From: an uncultured Actinomycetota bacterium | Lineage (GTDB): Bacteria > Actinomycetota > Actinomycetes > Mycobacteriales > QHCD01 | Reading direction: 5' to 3' | DNA length: 64,000 bases | NCBI GenBank assembly: GCA_963775655.1 | Contig: CAVZJT010000007.1 | Coordinates: 734 to 64,733 of the forward strand | In this document: positions 1,620 to 64,000 of the stretch, piece by piece | Layout: each line of letters starts with the position of its first letter | How positions within the stretch are numbered: the stretch's first letter is position 1 | Notes under the pieces: model-generated | Database searches by the model: none | What the model saw: only the letters and a program-made list of their open reading frames with translations | Told to the model about the DNA's origin: nothing | Position numbers and translations under genes: made by a program

Positions 1620-2981
1620 ATGGTCAGTGGTTCCGGTCCCGGTGAGCTCCCGGTGTGGGATGCGGTCGGCTGCCTGACCGCCGCCGTCGACGGGCTTGCC
1701 GGGGCGGCGTTGTGGCGGTGCGGGGATGCGGAGCTGCTGGATCTGCAGCGGGTGGTGGAGACGGCGGCCCGCCGGTTGTCGGCGGCGGCGTTGCGGCTGG
1801 TCGCGGAGGTCGACGACCGCCGGCTCGCCACCGACCGGGGGGCGGTGTCGACGGCGGCGTTGCTGCGGCAGGTGCTGAACATCTCCCCGGCGGAGGCGGG
1901 CTGGCGGGTCACCGCGGCGGAGAAACTGCTGGACCGGATCGGCCCGTCCGGGCAGACCGTGCCGGCGCGCTGCCGGCGACCGGGGCGGGGTTGGCGGACG
2001 GGTCGATCGGGGCGGGGCAGGCCCGGCTGATCTGCGACACGATCCGCCGCCTCCCCCCCGGGGTGGACGCCGACACCCGCGCCCGCGCGGAGGCGTTCCT
2101 GGCCGCCCAGGCCAGGGACCTGGACACGACGGCGTTGGGGAAGTGGCCCGCCGCATGCTCGCGACCCTGGACCCGGACGGGGCCGCGCTCGACGACGAGG
2201 ACGCGGTCCGGGCCCGGGAACTGTCCCTCGCCCGCGGGCCGGACGGGATGACGATGATCCGGGGCCGGCTCGATGCGGAAGGGGCGGCGGTGCTCCGCTG
2301 CGCGCTGGACCCGTTCACCGCCCCGGCCCCGTCCACCGCCGACGGCCCGGATCCGCGCAGCCCGGCCCGACGGCAGGCGGACGGGTTGATCGAACTGGCC
2401 CGCCGCGCCCTCACCGCCGGGGACCTGCCGGAGACCGGGGGCCAGCGCCCGCAGGTCACCGTCACCCTCGACTGGGAGACTCTCCGCACCCGGTTGGGGG
2501 CCGCGGAGCTGGGCTGGGGCGGGCCGGTCACCCCGGAGTCGGCCCGGCGGATCGCCTGCGACGCCCAACTCATCCCCGTCCTGCTCGGCACGGCCGGGCA
2601 GCCGCTGGACGTCGGGCGGGCCAGCCACACCATCCCGGTCGGCATCCGCCGCGCGCTGGTGGCCCGGGACCGGGGGTGCGCGTTCCCCGGCTGCGACCGG
2701 CCGGCCGCCTGGTGCGACGGGCACCACATCGAGCACTGGGCCGACGGCGGACCCACCGCGATCACCAACCTGGTGCTGCTCTGCGGGCACCACCACCGCA
2801 CCATCCACCACCACGACTGGCAGGTCCGACTTGATCAAGGCTTACCCGTGTTCCTGCCGCCACCCTGGATCGACCCCGACCAGACACCCGCCGTAACCGG
2901 CTGCACCACCTCCCCGCCATGCCCGACCCACCCGAGCCACCGGGCAGCCGCCGGCGACGCACCCTCGAGTTGGTCAACTAG
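1620..2981 (+). pseudogene. DUF222 / HNH endonuclease (REP13E12-type), three frameshifts
   Basis: The N-terminal DUF222-like part is in ORF 1014-2030 (from ATG 1620). The middle part (LADGSIGAGQARLICDTIRRLP) is in ORF 1655-2251. The HNH core (CAFPGCDRPAAWCDGHHIEHWADGGPTAITNLVLLCGHHHRTIH) is in ORF 2143-3051. A family-typical tail, PRRNRLHHLPA...LELVN, ends at TAG 2979-2981 in a fourth frame. Shifts occur at ~1961, ~2143 and C-run 2887-2889, each fitting one missing nucleotide. Confidence 0.8.
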
Positions 2982-2991
2982 TGGGACAGTG

Positions 2992-3325
2992 CGACATCGT
3001 GCGCCCTACCCGCACAATCGGGTCCTCGGATGCGAGTACGGCGCACGATGATGCCCAGCCGACCGCGGCCACCGGGCTATCGGCGAGCGCCGGCCGGACA
3101 TCGGACGCGCTACCCGCATAATCCAGCCTCAGATGCGAGTACAGGGTCCGATGATGGCGATGACCCCGAAGCCGCCACGACATCGTGCGCCCTACTCGCA
3201 CAATCGGGTCTTGGATGCGAGTAATTCGCCGGCACGGGCGATCGGCGAAGCGAGCCGAACATCGGACGCGCTCCACACATCATCCAGGCCCGCTGCGAGG
3301 ACGACGCACGATGATGCCCGCCATG
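2992..3325. repeat. Array of four related ~55-nt nested-hairpin units, two alternating subtypes (family C)
   Basis: Unit 1 (2995-3050) has outer stem CATCGTGCGCC/GGCGCACGATG and inner stem TACCCGCA/TGCGAGTA. Unit 2 (3099-3153) has outer stem CATCGGAC/GTCCGATG with the same inner stem. Unit 3 (3181-3223) has lost its 3' outer arm. Unit 4 (3260-3313) is a chimera. ORFs across the array only repeat DPIVRVGRTMS and are not credible. Confidence 0.7.
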
Positions 3326-5926: not shown

Positions 5927-6403
5927 ATGGCTGATCAGGACGACGCGGACCAGATCGTCGGCTCCGATCGCCGCCGCCAACTCGACGAGGAGCTCGCAAG
6001 GCTGCGCGCCCAGAAGCGCGAGATCGAGGGCACCTTCGACACCGACAACCCCCGTGGCGACAGCGGCGACCAGGCCGACGAGATCGAACGCGGGTCGGAG
6101 CTGACCTGGATCGACGACCGCATCACCGAACTCACCGATCTCCTCGAGCACGGCGTGGGCGCCGACCGACCCACCGGGGACCGGGTCGAGGTCGGGTCGC
6201 AGGTGGTCCTGGAGTTCTCCGACGGGACCCGGGAGACCCTCCTCGTCGGCGACGTCGGCCTGGACACCGGGCAGTCGACGGTGCTCACCCCCGACAGCCC
6301 GCTCGGGCGATCCATACTCGGGCACCGGGTGGGCGACACCGTGACGTATCCGGCGCCGTCGGGCCCGACGCAGGCGACCGTTGTCGAGATCAGCGTTTCC
6401 TGA
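5927..6403 (+). CDS. GreA/GreB-family protein (Rnk-like regulator)
   Basis: Acidic coiled N-terminus followed by a GreA/B C-terminal-type domain (VEVGSQVVLEFSDGTRETLLVGD...LTPDSPLGRSILGHRVGDTVTY). ATG at 5927. Confidence 0.7.
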   Translation: MADQDDADQIVGSDRRRQLDEELARLRAQKREIEGTFDTDNPRGDSGDQADEIERGSELTWIDDRITELTDLLEHGVGADRPTGDRVEVGSQVVLEFSDGTRETLLVGDVGLDTGQSTVLTPDSPLGRSILGHRVGDTVTYPAPSGPTQATVVEISVS

Positions 6404-7523: not shown

Positions 7524-9877
7524 TCACCGCACCTGCGTGAGCACCGTGTTGGACATGCCTGCGTTGGTGGTGTTGGTCGCGTAGTAGCGGTAGTCGGTGT
7601 TGGCGACGTAGCTCGTCATCCAGCGACCGCCGGCCGTGGCGGTGAGCGTCCGGCGAGCCGTGTAGCCCGGCACGTCCTTCTTCTTGAACCACACCCGGAT
7701 CGTCATTCCCGGCCGGGCGGTACCGACGATATTGACCGTCGAGCCGAGCGGGACCGTCGCCGGCCCCACCGTGAACGGCTTGATCTGAGTCAGGCCGTGC
7801 GGCGACATGCGTCCGCCGGAGGTGGCGTAGTAGCGGTAGTCGTTGTTGGCGACGTAACTGGTCGCCCAGTGACCGCTGCCATTGGCGTGCAGTCGACGGC
7901 GATTGGTGTAGTCGTCGGTGAGGTACTTGTGGAACCACACGTTGACGATCGCGTTCGGCGCGGCGGTGCCGCTCAACTCCACGCTCGTGTTGAGCTGGGC
8001 GAAGGCCGGCCCGGTGATGGTCACCGCCGGTCCGAGTGGAGTCACCGTGTTGGACGCCTTCGACGGCGCGGAGGGCCCGACCGAGTTGGTCGCGGTGACC
8101 TGGAACGAGTACTGGTCGCCGTTGGTCAGCCCGGTCACCGTGATCGGGCTCCCGGATCCGTCCGCGGTCTGGCCGCCGTGGCCGGGGTTGGTGTGATCAG
8201 TGGCCCGCACCGTGTACGAGGTGATGGCTGCGCCGCCGTCGTTGACGGGCGGCGTGAAGGTGACCGCGGCGGTGCCGTTCCCGGCGGTCGCGTGCGCGTC
8301 GGTCGGTGGGTCGGGCACGGTGACCGGGCCCATCGGCGTGACCGCGTTGGATTGCTCCGACGGGTCGGACGTGCCCACCCTGTTGGTGGCGGTGACCGTA
8401 AAGGTGTAGGTCGTGCCGTTGGTCAGCCCGTGCACCACGATCGGGCTACCCGGGCCGGTGGTCATCTGGCCGTCCAGCGGGGCCCGGCCGACGACCCGAC
8501 AACTCCGGGACACGCAGGGGGAGATCGCCTCGGCGGTCACGGTGTAGTGGGTGATCGCTGCCCCGCCGTCGTCCACCGGCGGCGTGAAGCTGACCGTCGC
8601 CTCCATGTGGCCCGCGAACGCGGTCACTTGGGTGGGTGCGCCGGGCACGGTCGCCGGAGTGACCGAGTTGGACGGATCCGACGGCAGCGATATCCCGTGG
8701 ATGTTCTTCGCGGTGACCGTGAAGGTGTACGCCGTGCCGTTGGTCAGACCGGGCACGGTGATCGGGCTGGCGAGTCCGCTGGCGGCTTTGCCGCCGGGGG
8801 ATGCCGTCACGGTGTAGCTGGTGATGGGTGCCCCGCCGGTGTTCACCGGTGCCGTGAAGGTCACTGCAGCGCTGGCGTTGCCGCCGGTCGCGTGCACGAG
8901 AGTCGGTGGGTGCGGCACCGTGCCCGGGGTCACCGTGTTGGAGACCGCCGAAGGCACCGAGTCACCGAAGGCATTCATCGCCTGGACGGTGAACGTGTAG
9001 TCGTCGCCGTTGTGCAGGCCGGTCACGGTGAGCGGGCTGCCGGGCCCGGTTGCGGTCTGGCCGCCGCGGCCCGGTTCGGTGGCATCGACGGCGAGCACGG
9101 TGTAGCCGGTGATCGGCGGGCCGCCGTCGTTCAGCGGCGGGGTGAAGGCCACGGCGGCAGACTGGTTCCCCGCGGTCGCGGTCACGCCGGTCGGCGGATC
9201 GGGGACCGTGCCGGGGATGACCGCGTTGGTCGGCGCTGACGGCTTCGACTTACCGAAGAAGTTCCGGGCGACGACGGTGAACGTGTAGCTGTCGCCGTTG
9301 GTCAGCCCGCGCACGGTGATCGGGCTCGTTACGCGGGTGGCGGTCTGCCCGCCGCGACTCGGATCGGTGTGGTCGGTCGCGGTGACGGTGTAGTCGCGGA
9401 TCTTTACGCCGCCGTTGCTCACCGGGATCTTGAACTTGACCAGGGCGTCGGTATTGCCCGCCGTCGCTTCGGCGCCGATCGGAGGTGCGGGCACGGTGCC
9501 CGGGATGACCGGGAAGGACGGCAGCGACGGGCGCGACGTACCGAAGAAGTTCCGCGCGGTGACGGTGAAGGTGTAAAGGTCGCCGTTGTGCAGGGTGCGC
9601 ACGGTCAGCGGGCTGGTCCGTCCGCGGCCGTCTGCCCGCCGCGCGCCGGATTGGTGAGATCGCGCGCGGTGACGGTGTAGCGGGTGATCGGGGCGAGGCC
9701 GCGGCGAGCCGGCGGGCTGAAGGTCACGGTCGCCTCGGCGTTGGCGGCCACGGCGTCGACGTTTCTCGGCGGGCCGGGCCGGCCGATCGCGTTCGGTGCC
9801 GGCGCGGCGGCGGCCGATCCCATCCCGAGCGTCTGCACTGATGCGGCGATGAGGATGGCGACAGACGCCACCTGCAT
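7524..9877 (-). pseudogene. Secreted protein with six fibronectin type III repeats and two C-terminal Ig-like repeats, one frameshift
   Basis: The signal peptide (MQVASVAILIAASVQTLGMGSAAA) and first FN3 repeat are in ORF 9605-9982; the rest is in ORF 7524-9602. The frames join inside the conserved GGQTA..SPLTV motif at ~9618 (one missing nucleotide). The repeated motif is P..NDGG..IT.YTV...GGQTA...SPITVTGLTNG..YTFTV.A.N. The C-terminal duplicated module carries YVAN.DYRYYAT. Confidence 0.85.
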
Positions 9878-9998
9878 GAAACGGATGCGTGGCACGATCC
9901 GACCCCCCGTCGGGTTACCCACCCTGAGTGGTCGAAGTATTACACAGCGCGTCCGACTTCCGGCGAGTCTCACGGGTCCCACCCGTTTCAGGGCTCCG

Positions 9999-10059
9999 AT
10001 TCCACGTCAACGTGACGTTGACGTGGCGAGAGCGCCGGAACGTCACGTTCACGCGGAAT
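9999..10059. repeat. Solo copy of the 61-nt palindromic unit (family A)
   Basis: Sequence is ATTCC-ACGTCAACGTGACGTTGACGTGG-CGAGAGCGCC-GGAACGTCACGTTCA-CGCGGAAT. Length and layout match the three units at 55136-55367. Confidence 0.75.
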
Positions 10060-10120
10060 GTGGGACCTATGCTTGCGGGACAGCTCGACTCTGCGTCGGG
10101 TTCCGGGGGCAGCCGTGGCC

Positions 10121-10798: not shown

Positions 10799-12084
10799 CT
10801 ACAGCTGGCCGAGATAGAACTGGGTGCCTTGGTCGTCGGTGCAGGTGCTCGTCGTCCCGTACGGCTGGCGCTCCGGATCGGTGGCGGTGCCGCCGGACCG
10901 GCGTACCCGATCGACCGCGGCGTCGATGTCGTCCACCCGCCACATCGGTACGCCGGTCGCGACGTCGTTGCCGCCGGCCAGCCCGGTCATCGCGACGACG
11001 TCGTCGACGCTCCAGCCGTCCTGCACCCGGCCGGCGCTGAACCGCCAGCCGAGTACGGCGCCGTAGAAGGCGCGGAACCGCGCGGAGTCGACGACCTGCA
11101 GGGTGAGGTAGCCGAGGTCGCCCTGCCGTTCGCCGTTCGCCGGCGGGCGGGCACCGGACGATCCGGCCGGCTGCTGGTAGACCGCGAACTGCGTGCCCTG
11201 GTCGTCGACGCACATCGCGGTGCGGCCGTACGGCTCCTCGGTCGGCTCGTCCGCCTGCCCGCCCGCGGCCCGGACCTGGGCGACCGCGACGTCGACGTCG
11301 TCGACGGCGTAGCAACAGAAGAGCGAGCCACGGTCCTGTCCGCCGAAGATGCCGATCGACGGCGTCGTCCCGACCACCCGCCGGCTCTGCGGGGCGTGCT
11401 GCGGCGCGTAGGTCCAGCCGAGCACCGACTCGTAGAACGCGGCCGCGCGGTCGACGTCGGGCACCCACACCGAGACGTAGCCGATGTCGCCGTGCCGGTA
11501 CGACGGAGCCGCGGCGGGCAGCGGCGTCTGCAGCATCCAGCGATGCTGGAAGGGGTCGACGACGGTGGCATTGCGGTGGCCGTAGCCCTCGTACGGCTCG
11601 CGGGTCAGTTGGCCGCCGGTGCGCGTCGCGGCGGCGATCGTCGCGTCGACATCGGGCACGGTGAGCACCAGGGTCACGGATGCGGCGCCCGGCTGCGGAC
11701 CGACCACCCCGATCTCGGGATGCTCGTCGGAGAGGTACAGCGTGCCGCCGGACACCTCGAGCTCGGCATGGCCGACCCGGCCGTCCGGCATGACGATCGA
11801 CTCGCCGACTTGACGGGCGCCGAGAACCTCGACGTACCAGTCGATCGCGCGTCGCGCATCGCTGACCGCGAGGTAGGGGATCGCGGCACCGGCGGCGGCC
11901 GGGACGGCCGTCTCGGCGGCGGGGCTGCGGCTGCGGCGGCGGTGGCGGTGGTGGTGGTGGTCATGGCGACTCCTCGGGGAAGGGCCAGCGCACGTTCGAC
12001 GCGGGCCCGCAGGCGGGCGGCAAAGGTGGGATCGGGGTCGGCCGGCGTGACCGGCGTCCGCAGGATGTCCAGGGGATCAGTCAT
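10799..12084 (-). pseudogene. VOC/glyoxalase-family protein (three VOC-like modules) with N-terminal extension, one frameshift
   Basis: The N-terminus MTDPLDILRTPVTPADPDPTFAARLRARVERALALPRG...TTTTTATAAAAA is in ORF 11674-12168. The VOC modules (IPYLAVSDARRAIDWYVEVLGA..., GYVSVWVPDVDRAAAFYESVLGW, GYLTLQVVDSARFRAFYGAVLGW) are in the frame of ORF 10799-11791. The frames join at G-run 11921-11924 (one missing nucleotide). ATG 12084 overlaps the sigma-factor stop by 8 nt. Confidence 0.75.
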
Positions 12085-16954: not shown

Positions 16955-17036
16955 GGACAAAACCCACTACTAGTGGGTTTTGGACACCTGGCACGGCGTG
17001 TCGTGGACCAAAACCCACTACTAGTGGGTTTTGTCC
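16955..17036. repeat. 82-nt double-hairpin repeat (family B), copy 1, inverted relative to the other copies
   Basis: Two hairpins CAAAACCCACTA-C-TAGTGGGTTTTG (16958-16982 and 17009-17033) flank the linker CGGCGTGTCGTGGACC, which is the reverse complement of GGTCCACGACACGCCG. The copy lies 40 nt downstream of the rsgA stop. Confidence 0.85.
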
Positions 17037-17076
17037 AGCGGTCGATCCGGTTCAGCGGGGGCCGCCGCGCGGGTGC

Positions 17077-18069
17077 TCACCAGTGCTCCTCACCGGACCG
17101 GGCGCGCAGCAGCCGGCGGAAGGACTCCAGCCGTCGTGGTTCGGCATTGCCCGCGGCGACCCAGGCGTCCAAGGAGCACCGGTCGGCGGTGGCGCTGTGA
17201 TCACACCCGGGCGGGCACGTCTCCGCCCCCGCAGCCAGGTCCGGGAAGGCCGCGAGGATGTCGGCCGGCCGCACGTGCGCCAACCCGAACGACCGGATCC
17301 CCGGGGTGTCGACGACCCACCCGCCACCGGGCAGCGGCAGCGCGACCGCCGACGACGAGACGTGCCGGCCCTTGCCGATCGCGCTCACCGCCCCGACGGC
17401 GCGCTCCGCCTCGGGCACCAGGGTGTTGACCAGGGTGGACTTGCCGACGCCGGAGTGTCCGATGAAGACGCTGGTCCGCTCGCTCAGTCGCGCCCGCAGG
17501 GCGGCCGGCTCCTGGTCCCGACGGGTGGTCACGGCGGGCAGCCCCAGGTCGGCGTACGCCGCGAGCACCGGTGCGGCCGGGCTCAGATCCGCCTTCGTCA
17601 GGCACAGCAGCGGGTCGAGCCCCCCGGCGTAGGCGGCCACCAGGCACCGGTCGATGAAGCCCATGCTCGGCGGCGGGTCGGCCAGCGAGGTCACGACGAC
17701 GAGTTGGTCGGCGTTGGCGACGATGGCGCGCTCGACCGGGTCGGTGTCGTCGGCGGTACGCCGCAGCACACTCGTCCGCGGCTCGATCCGCACGATGCGG
17801 GCCAGCGAGCCGGGTCCGCCGGACAGGTCGCCGACCAGGGCCACCCGGTCACCGACCACGACCGACCCGCGGCCGAGTTCGCGGGCCCGCATCGCGGTGA
17901 CCGCCGCACCGTCGACCAGGCACGTGTACCGACCGCGGTCGACGGCGGTCACGACGCCCGCGGCGGCGCCGCGGTGGCGGGGCCGCTGTTTGGTCCGCGG
18001 GCGCGAGCCGTGCCGGCCCGGCCGGACCCGGACGTCGTCCTCGTCGAGCGGACGTCGACTCAGCGGAGG
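17077..18069 (-). CDS. rsgA: Ribosome small-subunit-dependent GTPase A
   Basis: The N-terminus DEDDVRVRPGRHGSRPRTKQRP, the circularly permuted GTPase motifs (LTKADL ... GHSGVGKSTLVN) and the C-terminal Cys/His cluster CPPGCDH...C all match RsgA. The start codon is not resolved (no clean ATG/GTG; ~18054-18069). Confidence 0.85.
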   Translation of the reverse strand, partial: PPLSRRPLDEDDVRVRPGRHGSRPRTKQRPRHRGAAAGVVTAVDRGRYTCLVDGAAVTAMRARELGRGSVVVGDRVALVGDLSGGPGSLARIVRIEPRTSVLRRTADDTDPVERAIVANADQLVVVTSLADPPPSMGFIDRCLVAAYAGGLDPLLCLTKADLSPAAPVLAAYADLGLPAVTTRRDQEPAALRARLSERTSVFIGHSGVGKSTLVNTLVPEAERAVGAVSAIGKGRHVSSSAVALPLPGGGWVVDTPGIRSFGLAHVRPADILAAFPDLAAGAETCPPGCDHSATADRCSLDAWVAAGNAEPRRLESFRRLLRARSGEEHW

Positions 18070-18071
18070 GC

Positions 18072-19367
18072 TCAGCGTCCCTCCCGCAGCAACTCGTCCC
18101 ACATCCCGACGAAGTCGGGGAGCGTCTTGCCGGTCGTGCCGATGTCCTGGACCGCCACGTCGTCGACGCGCAGCCCGAGCAGTGCGCCGGCCTGCGCCAT
18201 CCGGTGGTCGCCGTAGGTCGCCACGACTCCGCCGTGCAGCGGCCGTGGCCGGATCAGCAGGCCGTCGTCGGTCTCGGTCACGTCCGAGCCGAGCGCGGAG
18301 AGTTCGTGGGCAAGGGCCGCGAGCCGGTCGGTCTCGTGCCCGCGCAGGTGGGCCAGGCCGGACAGGCGGGAGGGACCGTCGGCGAGAGCGCACGCGGCCG
18401 CCAGCACCGGGGCCAACTCGCCGACCTCGTGCAGGTCGGCCGTCAGGCCGCGGACCCGTCCGGCGCCGCGCAGGGTGAGCCCACCGTCGTCGACGGCGCT
18501 CGTCGCCCCCATCTCGGCCAGCAGGTCGGGCAGGGCGGCCCCGGCCTGGGTGGTGCGGGCCGGCCAGTCCGGCACGCGCACCTGCCCGCCGGTCACCAGA
18601 GCGGCGGCGAGGAACGGGGCGGCGTTGGACAGGTCGGGCTCGACGACCACGTCGACGGCCCGGATCTCGCCGGGCGCCACCTGCCACCGGTCGGGGGTGG
18701 TGTCGTCGACCTCGACTCCTGCCGTCCGCAGCATCGCCACCGACATCGCGACGTGGGGGAGCGACGGCAGCGGCGGCCCCTCGTGGCGGAGGTCGAGCCC
18801 GCGGTCGTAGCGGGCCCCGGCGAGCAGCAGGGCGCTGACGAACTGCGAGGACGCCGAGGCATCGATCGTCACCGCGCCGCCGGGCAGCCGGCCGTCGCCG
18901 CGGATGGTCAGCGGTACGGCGCCCCGGCCCCCGTCGTCGATCTCGGCCCCGAGTGTCCGCAGCGCCGTGACGAGCGGCCCGAGCGGGCGTTCCCGCGCGC
19001 GGGGATCACCGTCGAAGGTCACCGGTCCCCTGGCGAGCGCCGCCACCGCGGGGACGAAGCGCAGGACAGTGCCGGCGAGGCCCACGTCGACGTCGGCCGG
19101 GCCGCGCAGCGGCTCCGGGGTGATCGTCCAGTCGACGGTGTCGGCCAGTCCCTCGGCCGGCCGCTCCACGATCCGGGTGCCGAGGGCACACAGGGCACGC
19201 AGCATCAATGTGGTGTCGCGGGCCCGCAGCGGGCGCCGTACCAGGGACGGCGCGTCGGCCAGCGCCGCGAGCAGCAGCGCCCGGTTGGTCATCGACTTCG
19301 ACCCGGGCAGCACGACGGTGGCGTCGACCGGCGAGGTCGCTCGCGGGGCAGGCCAGGGTGACTCCAC
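18072..19367 (-). CDS. aroA: 3-phosphoshikimate 1-carboxyvinyltransferase (EPSP synthase)
   Basis: [33 protein letters not shown] and the remainder of the ORF are colinear with AroA. GTG 19367 is preferred; ATG 19457 is an alternative. Confidence 0.9.
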
Positions 19368-19449: not shown

Positions 19450-19506
19450 GGGGTCACAGATGGCCGTCAGCTGCCGGGCTACGGGCAGCACGACCGGGAA
19501 GGAGCG

Positions 19507-20286
19507 ATGAGCGTGCAGGACACCCGGGTGAAGCCCACCTCGGACCCGAAACGATGGTCTGTTTGGACCCCTTCGCTGCCCGATGACCAGGTCGGTCGGG
19601 ATTCCGTGCCCGATGTGACCGGTCCGGCCGGACATCAGACCCCCCGCGTAAACTCGTGGCACAACGAGCCGACGGGAGAACGTGTGGTGGCCGAGGAAAC
19701 GCCGGAGCAACGGCGTGAACGGTTCGAACGCGATGCATTGCCTTTCCTCGATCAGCTGTACGCGGCCGCGATGCGGATGACCCGCAACCCCGCTGACGCC
19801 GAGGATCTCGTGCAGGAGACCTTCGTGAAGGCCTATGCCGCCTTCCACCAGTTCACCGAGGGAACCAACCTCAAGGCGTGGCTGTACCGGATCCTGACCA
19901 ACACGTTCATCAACAGCTACCGCAAACGCCAGCGTCAGCCGCAGCAGGCGGCCGGCGAGCAGGTCGAGGACTGGCAGCTGGCGGCGGCCGAGTCGCACAC
20001 CTCGAGCGGCCTGAAGTCCGCCGAGGTCGAGGCCCTCGACCACCTGCCCGACTCCGATGTCAAAAATGCTCTGCAGCAGCTTCCGGAGGATTTTCGGCTA
20101 GCAGTCTATCTGGCCGATGTCGAGGGCTTTTCTTACAAGGAAATTGCCGAGATCATGGACACGCCGATCGGCACCGTGATGTCGCGGCTGCACCGCGGGC
20201 GGCGCGGGTTGCAGCGGTTGCTCACGGACTACGCGAGAGAGCGCGGAATCACCCCGGCGGTGGTTGGCGAGGGGAGTTCGTCGTGA
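19507..20286 (+). CDS. sigH: ECF sigma factor SigH/SigR (thiol-oxidative stress)
   Basis: The core [42 protein letters not shown]...[42 protein letters not shown] is followed by a ZAS anti-sigma gene that overlaps its stop. The long form starts at ATG 19507 (RBS GGAAGGAG); a short form is possible from GTG 19684/19687. Confidence 0.9.
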
Positions 20287-23976: not shown

Positions 23977-24058
23977 GACCAAAACGCACTCCTAGTGCGT
24001 TTTGGTCCGCGACACGCCGGCGCGGCTCCCCAAAACGCACTAGGAGTGCGTTTTGGTC
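23977..24058. repeat. 82-nt double-hairpin repeat (family B), copy 2
   Basis: GACCAAAACGCACT-CCT-AGTGCGTTTTGGTC, then CGCGACACGCCGGCGCGGCTCC, then CCAAAACGCACT-AGG-AGTGCGTTTTGGTC. The copy lies 41 nt downstream of the DUF559 gene stop. Confidence 0.85.
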
Positions 24059-24099: not shown

Positions 24100-25012
24100 T
24101 CAGGCAGCGGGACGGAAGGCGGCGAGCGCGTCGGCGACGGTCTGTACGACGTAGCTGGGCCGCATCGTGGCGTCGTACCAGGTGAATCGGAGCACGTGCC
24201 ACCCGGCCAGCTCGACATCGTTACCGCGCTGCCGGTCCCGGTAGACGGCCTTGACCTCGTCGTGGACCGCCCGACCGTCCGCCTCGATCGCGATGCGCCA
24301 CTCGACGTAGGCGAAGTCCAGTCGGGCGACCACCCTCCCGTCGATGTCGGTGAGGACGTGCTGGAGCACAGGGAGTGGTAGGCCGCCGTCGACGAGGACG
24401 AGTCGGATCAGAGTCTCCAAGGGCGATTCGCTACGTGCGTCGACCAGCGACACCCGGCGACGGATCGGACAGGCGAACGGCTCAGATCCCACGTTCTCCG
24501 CGATGGTTGCAAGCTCGGACGGGGTGATGAGGTTCTTGCGGACGGCGTCCTCGCAAGCCCAGATTGCGGTCAGCCGGTCACTCCACCGCAGCAGGTCGAG
24601 CAATGTGCGACGCACGGTCGTCACCCGGATCCCGGCCACAGTCGTGACGTCGGATTCGGGGAGAGGACAGCTGTGCACCAGCAACAGCCGCCGGTTGCGC
24701 CGATGGTCGGTGGCGCATGCGTGCTCGTGCGGTTCCTTCCGAACGACATCGATCGCGTGCAGTCGGGCGGCAGTGTCCATGCTGACCACGGCACCGGCCG
24801 GCGCGCTCAGTGCGACGGCAGCGGCCCGAATCTCGGGAGTCAGGTTGAGTGCGGCGTCGGCGTAGACGCCGCGCTGGATCCGCCGCCAGTCTCCGCGTCT
24901 CACCAGGTAGGTGATGTCCTTGCCGGTCATTCCGGACGCGCGGGCTTGTGCCGACGGTGATCAAACCGTGCTGATGATCGGAATATCGGGTAAGGAGCGC
25001 GTCCACCCGCAC
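24100..25012 (-). pseudogene. DUF559 (Vsr/PD-(D/E)xK-like endonuclease) protein with AbiEi-like N-terminal domain, one frameshift
   Basis: The C-terminal DUF559 signature is SPLETLIRLVLVDGGLPLPVLQHVL...VARLDFAYVEWRIAIEADGRAVHD...DRQRGNDVELAGWHVLRFTW. The N-terminal 17 aa (VRVDALLTRYSDHQHGL) are in ORF 24578-25012 and join the main frame at ~24958-24962 (apparent extra nucleotide). Confidence 0.8.
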
Positions 25013-25142
25013 AGTGTCATCGCGAATATCGCCGACGACGACCGATCAATGACGGTGTGGATGAGCATTGCCGGCTGTGGAGAACGAGTTGACGCGGGCG
25101 CCGTACGCCACTCGCGGTACGCCGACCCCGGGGTTGCGGCGT

Positions 25143-25224
25143 GACCAAAACGCACTAGGAGTGCGTTTTGGTCCGCGACACGCCGGTGCGGGCCCCCAAA
25201 ACGCACTAGGAGTGCGTTTTGGTC
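25143..25224. repeat. 82-nt double-hairpin repeat (family B), copy 3
   Basis: Same orientation and subfamily as copy 2, with 76/82 positions identical by eye (three of the six differences are the inverted loop). The copy lies 39 nt downstream of the symporter stop. Confidence 0.85.
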
Positions 25225-25263
25225 ACGGGGCCCCGGAACGGGGCCGAGCGGGCGGGTGAGTGG

Positions 25264-26890
25264 CTACGCGGCGAGTTCGGGTTGGACGCGGGGGTCGTCG
25301 GCGTCGGCGTGGTAGTCGGCCGGCGCGGTCTGGTCCCGTCCGGCGGGCACCTTCAGGGCCCGGAAGACCAGGGTGAGTACGACGGCGATCACCACGTTCA
25401 TCACGAACGCGGTCAGGGCGATGTAGCCGGTCCGCCCACCCAGCAGGGGGATCGACGCCACCGAACCGCCGAAGTGCTTACCCGTCGCCGGATTCAGGAC
25501 GTTGTACGCCGACACCGTGCCGTAGACCATCGCCGCCGCCCAGCCGATCAGGAGCGCGTAGCGGTGCAGCCAGCGGGTGTAGAGCCCGAAGACGATGGCC
25601 GGGAAGGTCTGCAGGATCCAGATCCCGCCCAGCAGCTGGAAGTTCAGCGCGAGGGTCTTGTCGAGGAAGAGGACGAAGACGAGCGCGCCCAGCTTCACCA
25701 CCAGCGACACCAGCTTCGACACGGCCGCCTCGTGTGCCGGCGTGGCGCGGCGCCGGAAGAACTCGCGGTAGACGTTGCGGGTGAACAGATTCGCGGCGGC
25801 GATGGACATGATCGCGGCCGGCACCAGCGCACCGATCGCGATCGCGGCGAACGCGATGCCCGCGAACCAGCTCGGGAACATCTGCCGGAACAGCGCCGGC
25901 ACCACCAGCTGCGGGTTGGGCTTCCCGTCCAGCCCGATCACGCTCGTCTTCGCCGCGATCGCCATGAATCCCAGCAACGCCAGCAGGCCGAGCATCAGCG
26001 AGTACGCCGGCAGGATGGCGGCGTTGCGGCGGACGATGCCGCGGTTCTTGGTCGAGAGCACGGCGGTCACCGAGTGCGGATACATGAACAGCGCCATCGC
26101 CGATCCCAAAGCGAGGGTCGCGTAGGCCCACAATGCCTTGTCCGACGGGATCACCGAACTGCCCGGCAAGCGCCGACGGTGAACTCATCTTCGCCTGCGC
26201 GGCGTCGAAGATCTTGCCGAATCCGCCGAGTTTGTAAGGGATGTAGATGATCGCCACGATGACGACGAGGTAGATCAGGAAGTCCTTCACGAAGGCGATC
26301 AGCGCGGGCGCGCGAAGCCCGCTGGAGTAGGTGTATGCGGCGAGGATGGCGAAGGCGATGAACAGCGGCAGGTCCTTGGCGAAGGTGTTTCCGCCGCCAC
26401 CGATGCCGATCACCTCGAGCACCGCCTGGATTCCCACCAGCTGCAGGGCGATGTAGGGCATCGTCGCCAGGATCCCGGTGAGGGCGATCGCCAGTGACAA
26501 AGAGCGCGAGTCGAAGCGCCCGCGGATGAAGTCTGCCGGGGTGACGTAGCCGTGCCGGTGTGCGACCGACCACAGCCTCGGCATGAAGATGAAGATGAGC
26601 GGATAGACGATGATCGTGTAGGGCACGGCGAAGAAGCCGCTGACCGCGCCGCTGGCGTAGAGCGCCGCCGGCACCGCCACGAAGGTGTAGGCGGTGTAGA
26701 GGTCGCCGCCGAGCAGGAACCAGGTCACGAACGTGCCGAAGCCCCGCCCGCCCAGCCCCCACTCGTCGAGGCTGGACATTGCGTGGGTACGCCGCCAGCG
26801 GGTCGCCGCGAAGCCCACCACCGAGACGAGCAGGAAGAGCACGATGACGATGGTCAGCGCGACTCGCGTCGATCCCGTTTCCGGCCGCAC
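25264..26890 (-). pseudogene. Sodium:solute symporter (SSS) family transporter, one frameshift
   Basis: The N-terminal ~240 aa are in ORF 25478-26890 (VALTIVIVLFLLVSVVGFAATRW...GDLYTAYTFVAVPA). The C-terminal 300 aa are in ORF 25264-26169 (SSVIPSDKALWAYATLALGSA...). The frames join at ~26168-26172 (apparent extra nucleotide). The gene is preceded by a DUF3311 gene, as is typical for this transporter type. Confidence 0.8.
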
Positions 26891-55125: not shown

Positions 55126-55135
55126 CGCCGCGCCG

Positions 55136-55367
55136 ATTCCGCTTGAACGTGACGTTCAAGCGCTCTAGCCGCATGAACGTCACGTTGAGGCGGAATGGGG
55201 GGGCGGCGGCCGCCGCCATTCGGCTTGAACGTCACGTTCAAGCCTTCTAGTGGCATCGACGTCACGTTGATGCCGAACGGGGCGGCGACTCGAGTCGGCG
55301 CGCCCCATTCCGCTTGAACGTCACGTTCAAGCGCTCTAGCCGCATGAACGTCACGTTCACGCGGAAT
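55136..55367. repeat. Three tandem 61-nt palindromic units (family A) separated by GC-rich palindromic spacers
   Basis: Units lie at 55136-55196, 55218-55278 and 55307-55367. Each has the layout ATTCCGC-TTGAACGT(C/G)ACGTTCAA-GCGCTCTAGCCGC-ATGAACGTCACGTT..-GCGGAAT. The spacers contain GGCGGCGGCCGCCGCC and CGACTCGAGTCG. Confidence 0.85.
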
Positions 55368-56085
55368 GGGAATGGGAATGGGAATGGGGACGGGGGCGGC
55401 GGGGGCCGAGGAGTACGTCGGCGCGGGCGCCGGTCAGCTCACCGGGTTCGCCGACGAACGCCACCTCGCCGCGGCGGAGGACGTAGGCGATGTCGGCGAG
55501 CCGGAGCGCCTGCCCGACGTACTGCTCGACGAGCAGCACCGACCGGCCGGGCTCCCGCGCCAGGTCGGCGACCACGTCGTAGAGCCGCGTCACCACCTGC
55601 GGCGCCAGCCCGCGACTCAGTTCGTCGAGTAGCAAGACCTGCGACGGACGGAGCAGCGCCCGCGACAGCGACAGCATCTGCCGCTCACCGCCGGACAGGC
55701 TGCCGGCGCGTTGGCCCAGCCGGCCCCGCAGCACCGGAAACACTGCCAGCGCCGGGTCGGGCGCACCGCCATCGCCGAACACGGCGAGGTTGTCCCGTAC
55801 CGACATCGTGGCGAAGACGCCGTGCTCGTCGGGGAGCAGCGCGAGCCCGTGACGCACCCGGTCGTACGCCGGCAGCCCACTCACGTCCTCGCCGTCCCAG
55901 CAAACCGCACCGGCGGTCAGCGGAAGCAGCCCGGCCAGGACCCGCAGCGTCGTCGTCTTGCCCGCGCCGTTGTGACCGAGCAGCGCGGTGATCCCGCGGG
56001 CGGGTATGGCGAGGTCGATGCCGTGCAACACCTCCAGCGGCCCGTATCCGGCCCGCGCGCCGCGCAGCGCGATCCCGGCGCTCAT
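55357..56085 (-). CDS. Branched-chain amino-acid-type ABC transporter ATP-binding protein (LivF-like)
   Basis: Walker A GHNGAGKTT, signature LSGGERQM, Walker B LLLDELSRGL. The last ~11 codons and the stop (TCA 55357-55359) lie inside the microsatellite and the family A unit. Confidence 0.85.
   Translation of the reverse strand: MSAGIALRGARAGYGPLEVLHGIDLAIPARGITALLGHNGAGKTTTLRVLAGLLPLTAGAVCWDGEDVSGLPAYDRVRHGLALLPDEHGVFATMSVRDNLAVFGDGGAPDPALAVFPVLRGRLGQRAGSLSGGERQMLSLSRALLRPSQVLLLDELSRGLAPQVVTRLYDVVADLAREPGRSVLLVEQYVGQALRLADIAYVLRRGEVAFVGEPGELTGARADVLLGPRRPRPHSHSHSHSA
55365..55388. repeat. Hexanucleotide microsatellite (AATGGG)x4
   Basis: The microsatellite is contiguous with unit 3 of the family A array. 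On the minus strand it encodes the HSHSHSHS tail of the ABC ATPase. Confidence 0.9.
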
Positions 56086-63044: not shown

Positions 63045-63706
63045 CCGGCAACGGCCCCGGCGCGATCACCCCGGACGGCTGCGCGGTGGAGGTGTACTCG
63101 CTGCTGCCGGCGATGGGCGAGCCGGAGATCATCCACGCCGCGGTCCTGCCCGGCGCCGCCGTACTCGACCTCGGGTGCGGTGTCGGCCGGCTCGCGCACC
63201 CCCTCATCGCCCTCGGCCACCCGGTGGTGGCCGTGGACGAGTCCCCAGAGATGCTGGCCCGGGTACGCGACGCCGAGACCGTCCGGTCCGGGATCGCGCA
63301 ACTCCGCCTCGGCCGCCGGTTCGGCGGCGTACTGCTGGCAAGTCACCTGATCAACACCCCGGACCCGGGGGAGCGGAACGCCCTGCTGGCGACCGCCGCC
63401 GCGCACCTCGCCGACGACGGCGTCCTGGTGCTCGAGTGGCACCCGCCGGAGTGGTTCGACACCGTCCGCTCGGGCACCGGTGGGACGGCGGGGCCGGTGC
63501 AGACGGCACTGGGCGGCGTACGCCGGGACGGGGACCTGCTGCAGGCCACGGCGGTCTACGTGGTCGGCGACCAGCGCTGGGAGCAGCCGTTCGTGGCCCG
63601 CCGGCTCACCGTGGCCGACCTCGACGGCGAACTCGCCCGGGTCGGGCTGCGGTTCGACGCTTGGTGCTCACCCGATCACTCCTGGCTCACCGCCGTCCCC
63701 GCCTGA
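63041..63706 (+). CDS. Class I SAM-dependent methyltransferase
   Basis: Motif I VLDLGCGVGRLA, then VVAVDESPEML and DDGVLVLE. ATG 63041 overlaps the MFS stop (ATGA). Confidence 0.75.
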   Translation: MTGNGPGAITPDGCAVEVYSLLPAMGEPEIIHAAVLPGAAVLDLGCGVGRLAHPLIALGHPVVAVDESPEMLARVRDAETVRSGIAQLRLGRRFGGVLLASHLINTPDPGERNALLATAAAHLADDGVLVLEWHPPEWFDTVRSGTGGTAGPVQTALGGVRRDGDLLQATAVYVVGDQRWEQPFVARRLTVADLDGELARVGLRFDAWCSPDHSWLTAVPA

Positions 63707-63736
63707 CCGCTGGCCCCGGTGTGCCGGGGTGCGGCT

Positions 63737-63818
63737 GGACAAAACCCACTAGTAGTGGGTTTTGGTCCACGACACGCCGATCGGGCTGCCCAAAACCCAC
63801 TAGTAGTGGGTTTTGTCC
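63737..63818. repeat. 82-nt double-hairpin repeat (family B), copy 4
   Basis: GGACAAAACCCACTA-G-TAGTGGGTTTTGGTCC, then ACGACACGCCGATCGGGCTGCC, then CAAAACCCACTA-G-TAGTGGGTTTTGTCC. The copy lies 30 nt downstream of the methyltransferase stop. Confidence 0.85.
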
Positions 63819-63934
63819 GCGATCCGGGGCGAGAGCGGTATCACACCGAAAACAAGTTGCCGACGGCGAAGTACAGGTGGATGCTGGACGCGAGCAAGTA
63901 GTTGCATGAGTCAGTTAAGGAGTACGTCGAGCGC

Positions 63935-64000
63935 ATGTCGATCTCCGAACAGCTCCGGGACATCACCGAGAGCATGGCGAGTGAGCGGCCGGACGCCCCC
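63935..64000 (+). CDS. 5' end of an unidentified gene (runs off the window)
   Basis: ATG 63935 is preceded by AAGGAG (63917-63922). The translation MSISEQLRDITESMASERPDAP is too short to assign. Confidence 0.4.
   Translation, partial: MSISEQLRDITESMASERPDAP

Follow-up and report, generated by a model that had tools for sequence, protein, structure and literature searches.

We lean towards the view that an 82-nt repeat, present four times in the 64,000-nt stretch of actinobacterial DNA analysed here (the window), belongs to a lineage-restricted, vertically inherited family of extragenic palindromic repeats whose mode of working resembles that of the REP/BIME (REPIN) elements. An earlier note, made from the sequence alone, had offered two options, a REP/BIME- or MITE-like element and a structured small RNA, and the first of these is the best fit. 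Reading the sequence directly, we found the four 82-nt copies where that note had placed them, copy 1 being inverted. Every copy consists of two perfect 25-nt palindromes of the form CAAAAC[C/G]CACT-NNN-AGTG[G/C]GTTTTG, set 51 nt apart from centre to centre around GGTCCRCGACACGCCG. The pattern CAAAACSCACT-N1-3-AGTGSGTTTTG is matched eight times in the window, against 0.00 matches expected from 100 shuffles, and no stray palindrome half-sites occur in the window beyond the four copies. The spacer between the palindromes, about 24-26 nt, reads GGTCC(A/G)CGACACGCCG followed by about 10 variable bases, so that the description of the linker as a conserved part plus some 10 variable nucleotides was accurate; GGTCCRCGACACGCCG itself occurs exactly four times in the window with 0 mismatches, and the loop consensus can be written (GG)TCCG-CGACACGCCG-TAC. 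The earlier reading of two subfamilies, and of centres that occur flipped (AGT/ACT, AGG/CCT), was likewise correct, except that the centre measures 3 nt in all eight palindromes, and not 1 nt in copies 1 and 4. The copies and their surroundings are as follows.

Copy 1, 16955-17036, loop motif on the - strand (16994-17009): A-type stems CAAAACCCACT...; palindromes 16958-16982 and 17009-17033; arms 16955-16983 and 17008-17036, 97% complementary; neighbours rsgA (stop 17077) and hisN (start 16913).
Copy 2, 23977-24058, + strand, loop motif 24004-24019: G-type stems CAAAACGCACT...; palindromes 23980-24004 and 24031-24055; arms of 29 nt, 100% complementary; neighbours a DUF559/AbiEi_4 gene (stop 24100) and a GNAT gene (start 23926).
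Copy 3, 25143-25224, + strand, loop motif 25170-25185: G-type stems; palindromes 25146-25170 and 25197-25221; arms 25140-25171 and 25196-25227, 91% complementary; 39 nt past the stop (25264) of a sodium:solute symporter gene and upstream of DUF559.
Copy 4, 63737-63818, + strand, loop motif 63764-63779: A-type stems; palindromes 63740-63764 and 63791-63815; 30 nt past the stop (63704-63706) of a + strand ORF with no identity assigned, and upstream of a conserved leader/start region.

Gene calling based on GC3 placed all four copies between genes. The window has a G+C content of 71%, and the flanking genes are ordinary chromosomal ones (aroA, rsgA, hisN, a sigma/anti-sigma pair, biotin carboxylase, sodium:solute symporter, bioB and kgd). 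A comparison of the flanks of the four copies revealed them to be mutually unrelated; the copies are thus not by-products of gene duplication, an explanation that the earlier note had kept in view.

That copies exist beyond the window was borne out by one genome. A pattern search of 185,579 species-representative genomes, a collection that excludes the window's own genome, detected the exact palindrome, both variable positions being set to N, in a single one, a related uncultured Actinomycetota MAG, MFD05442.bin.3.622, where 17 loci carry it. At least 27 units lie in the ~157 kb examined of this 3.6-Mb MAG and the density in the window is 4 units per 64 kb; from the sampled DNA the copy number looks modest, of the order of tens per genome. 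Searches elsewhere returned nothing related: JGI metagenome contigs scanned with the palindrome gave only four low-GC chance terminators, a blastn search of a plasmid collection with the element gave no match, viral contigs searched with the 14-nt loop motif gave at least 120 chance matches with no flanking stems among the matches listed, and a search of the literature by sequence string brought up only unrelated primers and similar. As far as found, the family is confined to a narrow group of uncultured soil actinobacteria. In the MAG, 2-4 palindromes follow one another in arrays with a strict 51-nt period, and the units fall into two stem classes with a common linker, GTCRGCGACACGCCGTAC: class A has the stem CGACAAAACCCACTASTAGTG[C/G]GTTTTG... 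and class B the stem GAACAAACGCACTASTAGTGCGTTTGTTC. Since the G subfamily of the window (copies 2 and 3) matches class B, both subfamilies must be old.

Syntenic stretches of relatives were located through homologues of HisN, of the symporter and of the DUF559 protein. Each of the four window copies is matched by an element at the equivalent position in the MAG, every family element of the MAG found in the compared stretches has a counterpart in the window, and 68-76 of 93-97 aligned bases are identical between the two. The MAG locus L153 is collinear with the window over ~14-34 kb and carries class-B elements at the 3' end of the symporter gene (8850-8935, the counterpart of copy 3, with the loop flipped), in the gap between DUF559 and the GNAT gene (10975-11060, copy 2) and just upstream of hisN (18585-18670, copy 1, for which counterparts were also found in L022-L025). 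At the site of copy 4, L009 8000-7296 is 79% identical to window 63249-63975 and has an element at the corresponding position. The four sites are thus kept across genomes that are ~80% identical, in which the neighbouring intergenic DNA is not alignable. Downstream of copy 4, window 63870-63940 (CAGGTGGATGCTGGACGCGAGCAAGTAGTTGCATGAGTCAGTTAAGGAGT) is nearly identical in the MAG and far better conserved than the surrounding coding DNA; it is probably the promoter or leader of the next gene.

In two more distant relatives the sites are occupied by hairpins with other stems. GCA_035547555.1 (L027; HisN 81% identical) has two hairpins between rsgA and hisN (9142-9325, the copy 1 site), and GCA_040414495.1 (L026; HisN 84% identical) has one hairpin 2 nt past the symporter stop (1126-1199, the copy 3 site). 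Their stems, GTTTCATGATCGACAGTGATTC..., CATGATCGTGAGTG... and GTGATCATGCAGAAATGG..., are unrelated to those of the window; their loops carry CGACACGCCGTAC, exactly in one hairpin and with a single mismatch in the other two, and the orientation of the loop motif relative to the genes is the same as in the window. Between the neighbouring copies of L027 there are compensated double changes, one copy having GAC...GTC and the other GTG...CAC. Stems are uniform within a genome and different between lineages: CAAAACCCACTAGT... in the window and the MAG, TCATGATCGACAGTG... in L027 and GTGATCATGCAGAAATGG... in L026. Stretches of other relatives, with 75-80% protein identity (L148-L152), contain no family member; one of them has an ordinary GC-rich 13-bp hairpin at the same position after the symporter gene. 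Judged from these alignments, the conserved features of the wider family are the long-hairpin layout discussed below, the loop motif and the genomic site. The elements have been inherited vertically at fixed sites since the lineages split. The statement of the earlier note that it is the pairing that is conserved, and not the primary sequence, does not hold at this scale, the linker/loop sequence being the most conserved part across lineages.

Two observations made in the same stretches concern other features. A further type of hairpin, with (G)TGATCATG-like stems, lies upstream of aroA in L153 (15620-15700), L027 (6722-6800) and L026 (~6235-6300); the loop of the L153 copy, GCGAAACGCCG, resembles the family motif, and there is no obvious counterpart at window 19457-19700. 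In the symporter gene of the window (25264-26392), tblastx similarity to the L026 symporter changes frame past 26169, so that, from the alignment, the gene may contain a frameshift or a sequencing error near 26170.

The layout of the element had been described as a double hairpin, each palindrome folding on itself. Instead, in the minimum-free-energy fold the two palindromes pair with each other, giving a single long hairpin with the linker as its loop; this was obtained for RNA and for DNA, on both strands and for every copy. The long hairpin comprises 28-31 bp, with -55 to -64 kcal/mol as RNA and z-scores of -7 to -11, and both strands fold equally well. To compare the two folds, 28 units of the window and its relatives were aligned without gaps over 93 columns: 84.4% of the cells are paired in the long hairpin, with 12 covarying pairs (changed on both sides) and a score of 0.130, against 79.2%, 8 covarying pairs and 0.090 for the double hairpin. 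The informative columns are the feet lying outside the palindromes (GGA...TCC, TGAC...GTCA, CGA...TCG), which covary between the outer ends of the unit and not inside a single palindrome. The compensatory C/G change, from which conserved pairing had been argued, is real in the window, where the two positions are complementary in 8/8 palindromes, but it does not extend to the family, for the position is unpaired in the first palindrome of 13 of the 28 units, and the commonest form of the palindrome in the MAG is mismatched at exactly the same place. The small centres (G/C, AGG/CCT) flip freely, which is the behaviour of inverted repeats. In L026 and L027 the arms are non-palindromic and only the long hairpin is possible; in class B of the MAG the outer arms pair perfectly over 13 bp and the individual palindromes pair less well, a further point in favour of the long hairpin. 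Within the loop, a 5-bp GACAC/GTGTC helix was considered as another conserved feature and dropped, as it is present in only about one third of the copies. As each arm is itself palindromic, the sequence can alternatively fold into the double hairpin. It is the loop and the long-hairpin layout that are conserved, not the double hairpin.

The position of the elements relative to genes is the next point to consider. In the window and in the loci of relatives, copies are intergenic or overlap just the final codons of an ORF, and most lie 0-60 nt after a stop codon. The genes on either side are convergent at about 7 sites, tandem at about 12 and divergent at 1; assuming that one quarter of intergenic regions are divergent, the probability of at most one divergent in 20 is ~0.02. 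In L022 and L153, an AAA_33 ORF upstream of the element ends at the TAG of the palindrome core. Such features would suit dedicated, TRIT-like hairpins for factor-assisted termination or 3'-end processing, which would not be selfish, would have their loop bound by a lineage-specific protein and would have evolved, or been recruited, at many gene ends. We regard this reading as possible, though rather unlikely. It would account for the placement after stops, with the stop codon sometimes supplied by the element, for the depletion between divergent genes and for the conservation of all four sites amid unalignable intergenic DNA; the ordinary hairpin at the equivalent position in one relative, and the precedent of TRIT, described in PMC3152330 as a sequence-conserved, palindromic, genus-restricted hairpin at gene ends, point the same way. 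The four T's of the element, however, belong to the stem, and what comes after them is GTCC or GGTC, so that there is no U-tract, and mycobacterial RNA polymerase needs one in vitro, according to PMC3993855. For the same lack of a U-rich tract after the hairpin, and as none was called at copy 1, a canonical intrinsic terminator was rejected. Moreover, of the independent tandem sites about 6 have the loop motif sense to the genes and 3 have it antisense, and at the symporter site it is flipped between window and MAG. Finally, the 51-nt arrays and the near-identical dispersed copies indicate copying rather than independent origin.

The two loop orientations relative to genes disfavour a simple reading in terms of an RNA loop. 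This bears most directly on the other option of the earlier note, a structured small RNA gene or, in a variant of it, an orientation-specific cis-regulatory RNA motif. The very stable predicted structure and the conserved loop sequence would be in keeping with such an RNA, but the elements sit between gene ends in both orientations with respect to the flanking genes, the loop is flipped between orthologues and both strands fold equally. In a scan made around copy 1 only, neither a sigma-70-type promoter nor a canonical terminator was called. Nor does any described RNA family fit, as had been suspected: at the Rfam gathering thresholds the window and L027 gave 0 matches, the elements searched in E-value mode matched only generic miRNA-precursor hairpins, far below threshold, and a tRNA/tmRNA scan found none. 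We consider a small RNA or RNA motif the least probable of the readings weighed here.

Scarcely more probable are paired double-stranded operators for a dimeric regulator or a nucleoid-associated protein, the 51-bp spacing (about five helical turns) allowing cooperative binding. The perfect 25-bp dyad symmetry in the window, the symmetric changes between subfamilies and the fixed spacing agree with such operators. On the other side, the sites are at gene 3' ends or between convergent genes and not at promoters, the arms in L026 and L027 are non-palindromic yet the loop and the inverted-repeat layout are kept, the most conserved part is the non-symmetric linker, and arrays may have 3-4 units.

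Resemblance to two other kinds of repeated structure was rejected. A CRISPR array is not compatible with 26-nt 'spacers' that all carry CGACACGCCG, and the window has no cas genes. As to integron attC sites, whose core-site consensus is RYYYAAC ... GTTRRRY, the ends CAAAAC/GTTTTG of the element do not fit on inspection, and there is no integrase in the window.

The question of mobility was approached through flanks, neighbouring genes and empty sites. No RAYT/IS200-type gene, for which the earlier note had advised a search, and no transposase, integrase or cas gene was found by Pfam among ~45 window genes and 10 neighbour genes in the MAG; a crude screen of 363 kb for the HUH...Y motif gave nothing. 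Around the four copies there is no target-site duplication, and no presence/absence polymorphism was seen, so that any mobility of the element is hypothetical. The findings count against the REP-like reading, as do the modest copy number and the lack of a U-tract, and they weigh on the possibility that the element is a MITE, i.e. a non-autonomous deletion derivative of a DDE-type IS, moved in trans by a transposase binding its terminal inverted repeats. Its size of ~82 nt, its long terminal inverted repeats, its multiple dispersed intergenic copies and its subfamilies are all MITE-like. But no shared direct repeat is present in the flanks of the four copies, nothing related was found in plasmids, no hairpin-flanked loop motif was seen among the first 120 viral-contig matches, the window has no transposase and there are no empty sites, 4/4 being occupied both in the window genome and in the MAG. 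Above all, the ends vary by lineage and the centre is conserved, the reverse of what is seen in a MITE. We therefore hold this origin to be improbable.

A different kind of variability is seen at the copy 1 site. Metagenome strains whose HisN is 98% identical have the flank towards hisN in common, and the other flank differs in three ways, starting from the element's edge. In the MAG, rsgA and the element are separated by an AAA_33 kinase-like gene (L153 18051-18608) that is absent from window 17037-17077; it is also found just upstream of the element in near-identical metagenome strains (L022 254-814), and L024 has yet another left flank. Gene content changes from the element's edge onwards; this is suggestive only, because the same junction is also variable in relatives without the element.

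The genes next to copies 2 and 3 were examined for a partner of the element. Between these two copies, which are in direct orientation, lies a DUF559/MTES_1575 endonuclease-like gene with an AbiEi_4 N-terminus (window 24100-24930). In the MAG, a 77% identical DUF559 gene occupies the same place, and an NmrA-like gene and the flipped element separate it from the symporter gene. We considered this gene as the nuclease of the element or as a mobile cassette and rejected it as a general partner, as none of the 17 MAG arrays has a homologue nearby and the extra gene parts it from the symporter-site element in the MAG. Besides it, the only selfish-looking gene of the window is a fragment at 2143-3051, a DUF222 + HNH endonuclease ORF of the '13E12 repeat' type, which matches the C-terminal part of DUF222 only. 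At or just past the 3' end of this ORF there is a related pair of hairpins (2995-3050 and 3099-3153), CATCGTGCGCCCTACCCGCA...TGCGAGTACGGCGCACGATG.

A second, unrelated family of hairpin repeats was noticed in the window (55133-55370 and 9990-10068), in L011 (6045-6111) and in L012 (564-651). It consists of three tandem ~67-nt units, CCGATTCCGC-TTGAACGTSACGTTCAA-GCG, loop CTCTAGC, CGC-ATGAACGTCACGTTSA-SGCGGAATGGG, each arm of which contains its own palindrome, as in the main family, and ~90% identical copies occur in MAG MFD05442.bin.3.622.

Returning to the REP/BIME-like reading, we may propose how such a family would work. The unit, an inverted repeat of ~82-88 nt, would have its arms pair whenever it is single-stranded, be it in the form of RNA or of ssDNA. 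In the window/MAG lineage the arms are 25-nt palindromes as well, which makes the unit a direct as well as an inverted repeat, able to take the alternative shape of two short hairpins and expanding into arrays with a 51-nt period. Templated copying from one dispersed copy to another would keep the stems of a genome uniform, whether through gene conversion, recombination or re-copying by a putative loop-recognising enzyme. Classes A and B are distinguished by three positions in each arm, with the differences mirrored across the four arms, and the hisN site has class A in the window and class B in the MAG; we infer templated replacement because twelve coordinated point changes are far less likely. 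At transcript 3' ends the hairpin probably acts in either orientation, as an exonuclease barrier or as a termination aid, and such action would cause copies to be retained; this function is proposed in view of the placement at gene ends, the retention of 4/4 sites amid diverged intergenic DNA and the independence of orientation. The dispersed copies may also serve as recombination points. More speculatively, and here we are doubtful, a putative enzyme could recognise the loop CGACACGCCGTAC as presented by the hairpin and re-copy or convert stems from a master sequence into resident sites, so that sites and loop would persist across lineages while stems are replaced genome-wide. If true, this would be a REPIN-like replicator in Actinomycetota with recognition reversed (the loop, not the stem), possibly relying on a non-RAYT enzyme.

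How does the family compare with known systems? Extragenic palindromes have been well studied in proteobacteria; the nearest actinobacterial precedent, TRIT, is still mechanistically unexplained. Both TRIT and the present family are sequence-conserved, bidirectional palindromic hairpins in many copies at gene termini, sometimes overlapping a stop codon, without classical U-tract and restricted to one actinobacterial lineage. TRIT, the Tuberculosis Rho-independent terminator motif, is reported only in Mycobacterium, with 147 copies in M. tuberculosis, and is proposed to act at transcript 3' ends, as given in the accessible part of the RNIE paper (PMC3152330); that part describes for TRIT neither double-palindrome arms nor a conserved 24-nt loop, and the two are compared here by general properties only, Rfam containing no TRIT model or consensus. 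The narrow distribution of the present family, its fixed orthologous sites and its conserved loop with lineage-specific stems are useful in this respect, since the three properties together make the concerted evolution of dispersed hairpins directly testable, and likewise a role at gene ends in high-GC bacteria without classical terminators. Such repeats can also be mistaken for mini-CRISPR arrays or small RNA genes, and they fall at points at which close strains differ in their gene order.

MITEs such as Correia, the IS-derived repeats of Neisseria, are likewise small (~80-150 nt) and intergenic, with terminal inverted repeats and subfamilies. The present elements depart from them in having no target-site duplication, parent IS or insertion polymorphism, and in conserving the centre instead of the ends. 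In the nick-site hairpins of HUH enzymes (origins of rolling-circle plasmids and ssDNA viruses, ends of IS200/IS605 elements), the loop or adjacent sequence is conserved and the stems vary. A conserved loop on stems that vary by lineage may be seen as an analogous arrangement; here the screens turned up no HUH protein, and hairpins in the viral contigs examined did not contain the loop motif.

The closest likeness is to REP/BIME and REPIN. In both cases short extragenic palindromes are arranged as inverted doublets that form one long hairpin, in regularly spaced clusters (here the 51-nt arrays) with defined linker motifs, placed after genes at stable sites with vertical inheritance and falling into genome-specific sequence classes; the extragenic REP unit of 20-40 nt also compares well with the intergenic 25-nt palindromes described here. 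In E. coli, REP hairpins at transcript 3' ends serve as an exonuclease barrier or a termination aid. The action of REP at transcript 3' ends is discussed too in PMC3993855. The differences concern copying and recognition. In Proteobacteria (E. coli, Pseudomonas) these repeats are mobilised by RAYT (Y1 HUH) transposases, of which none was found here in the DNA examined; the REP foot tag GTAG/CGTC is absent, the feet being GGAC/GTCC, TGACC/GGTCA or CGAC/GTCG and GTAG occurring only inside the palindrome core; and the copy number, typically >100 per genome for REP, is apparently lower. Unlike in REP/REPIN, each arm is a perfect palindrome, and, whereas a REPIN family is defined by its REP stem, here the spacer/loop is conserved and the stems change between lineages. 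The REP/RAYT literature examined describes no such family in Actinomycetota, and a literature search combining REPIN/RAYT with Actinobacteria returned no paper. Because the family lacks the GTAG/CGTC tag and the small parts of the genomes examined yielded no RAYT, we do not file the family as RAYT-REP and call it REP/BIME-like in its working only. It is a new, lineage-restricted variant on the theme of extragenic palindromic repeats.
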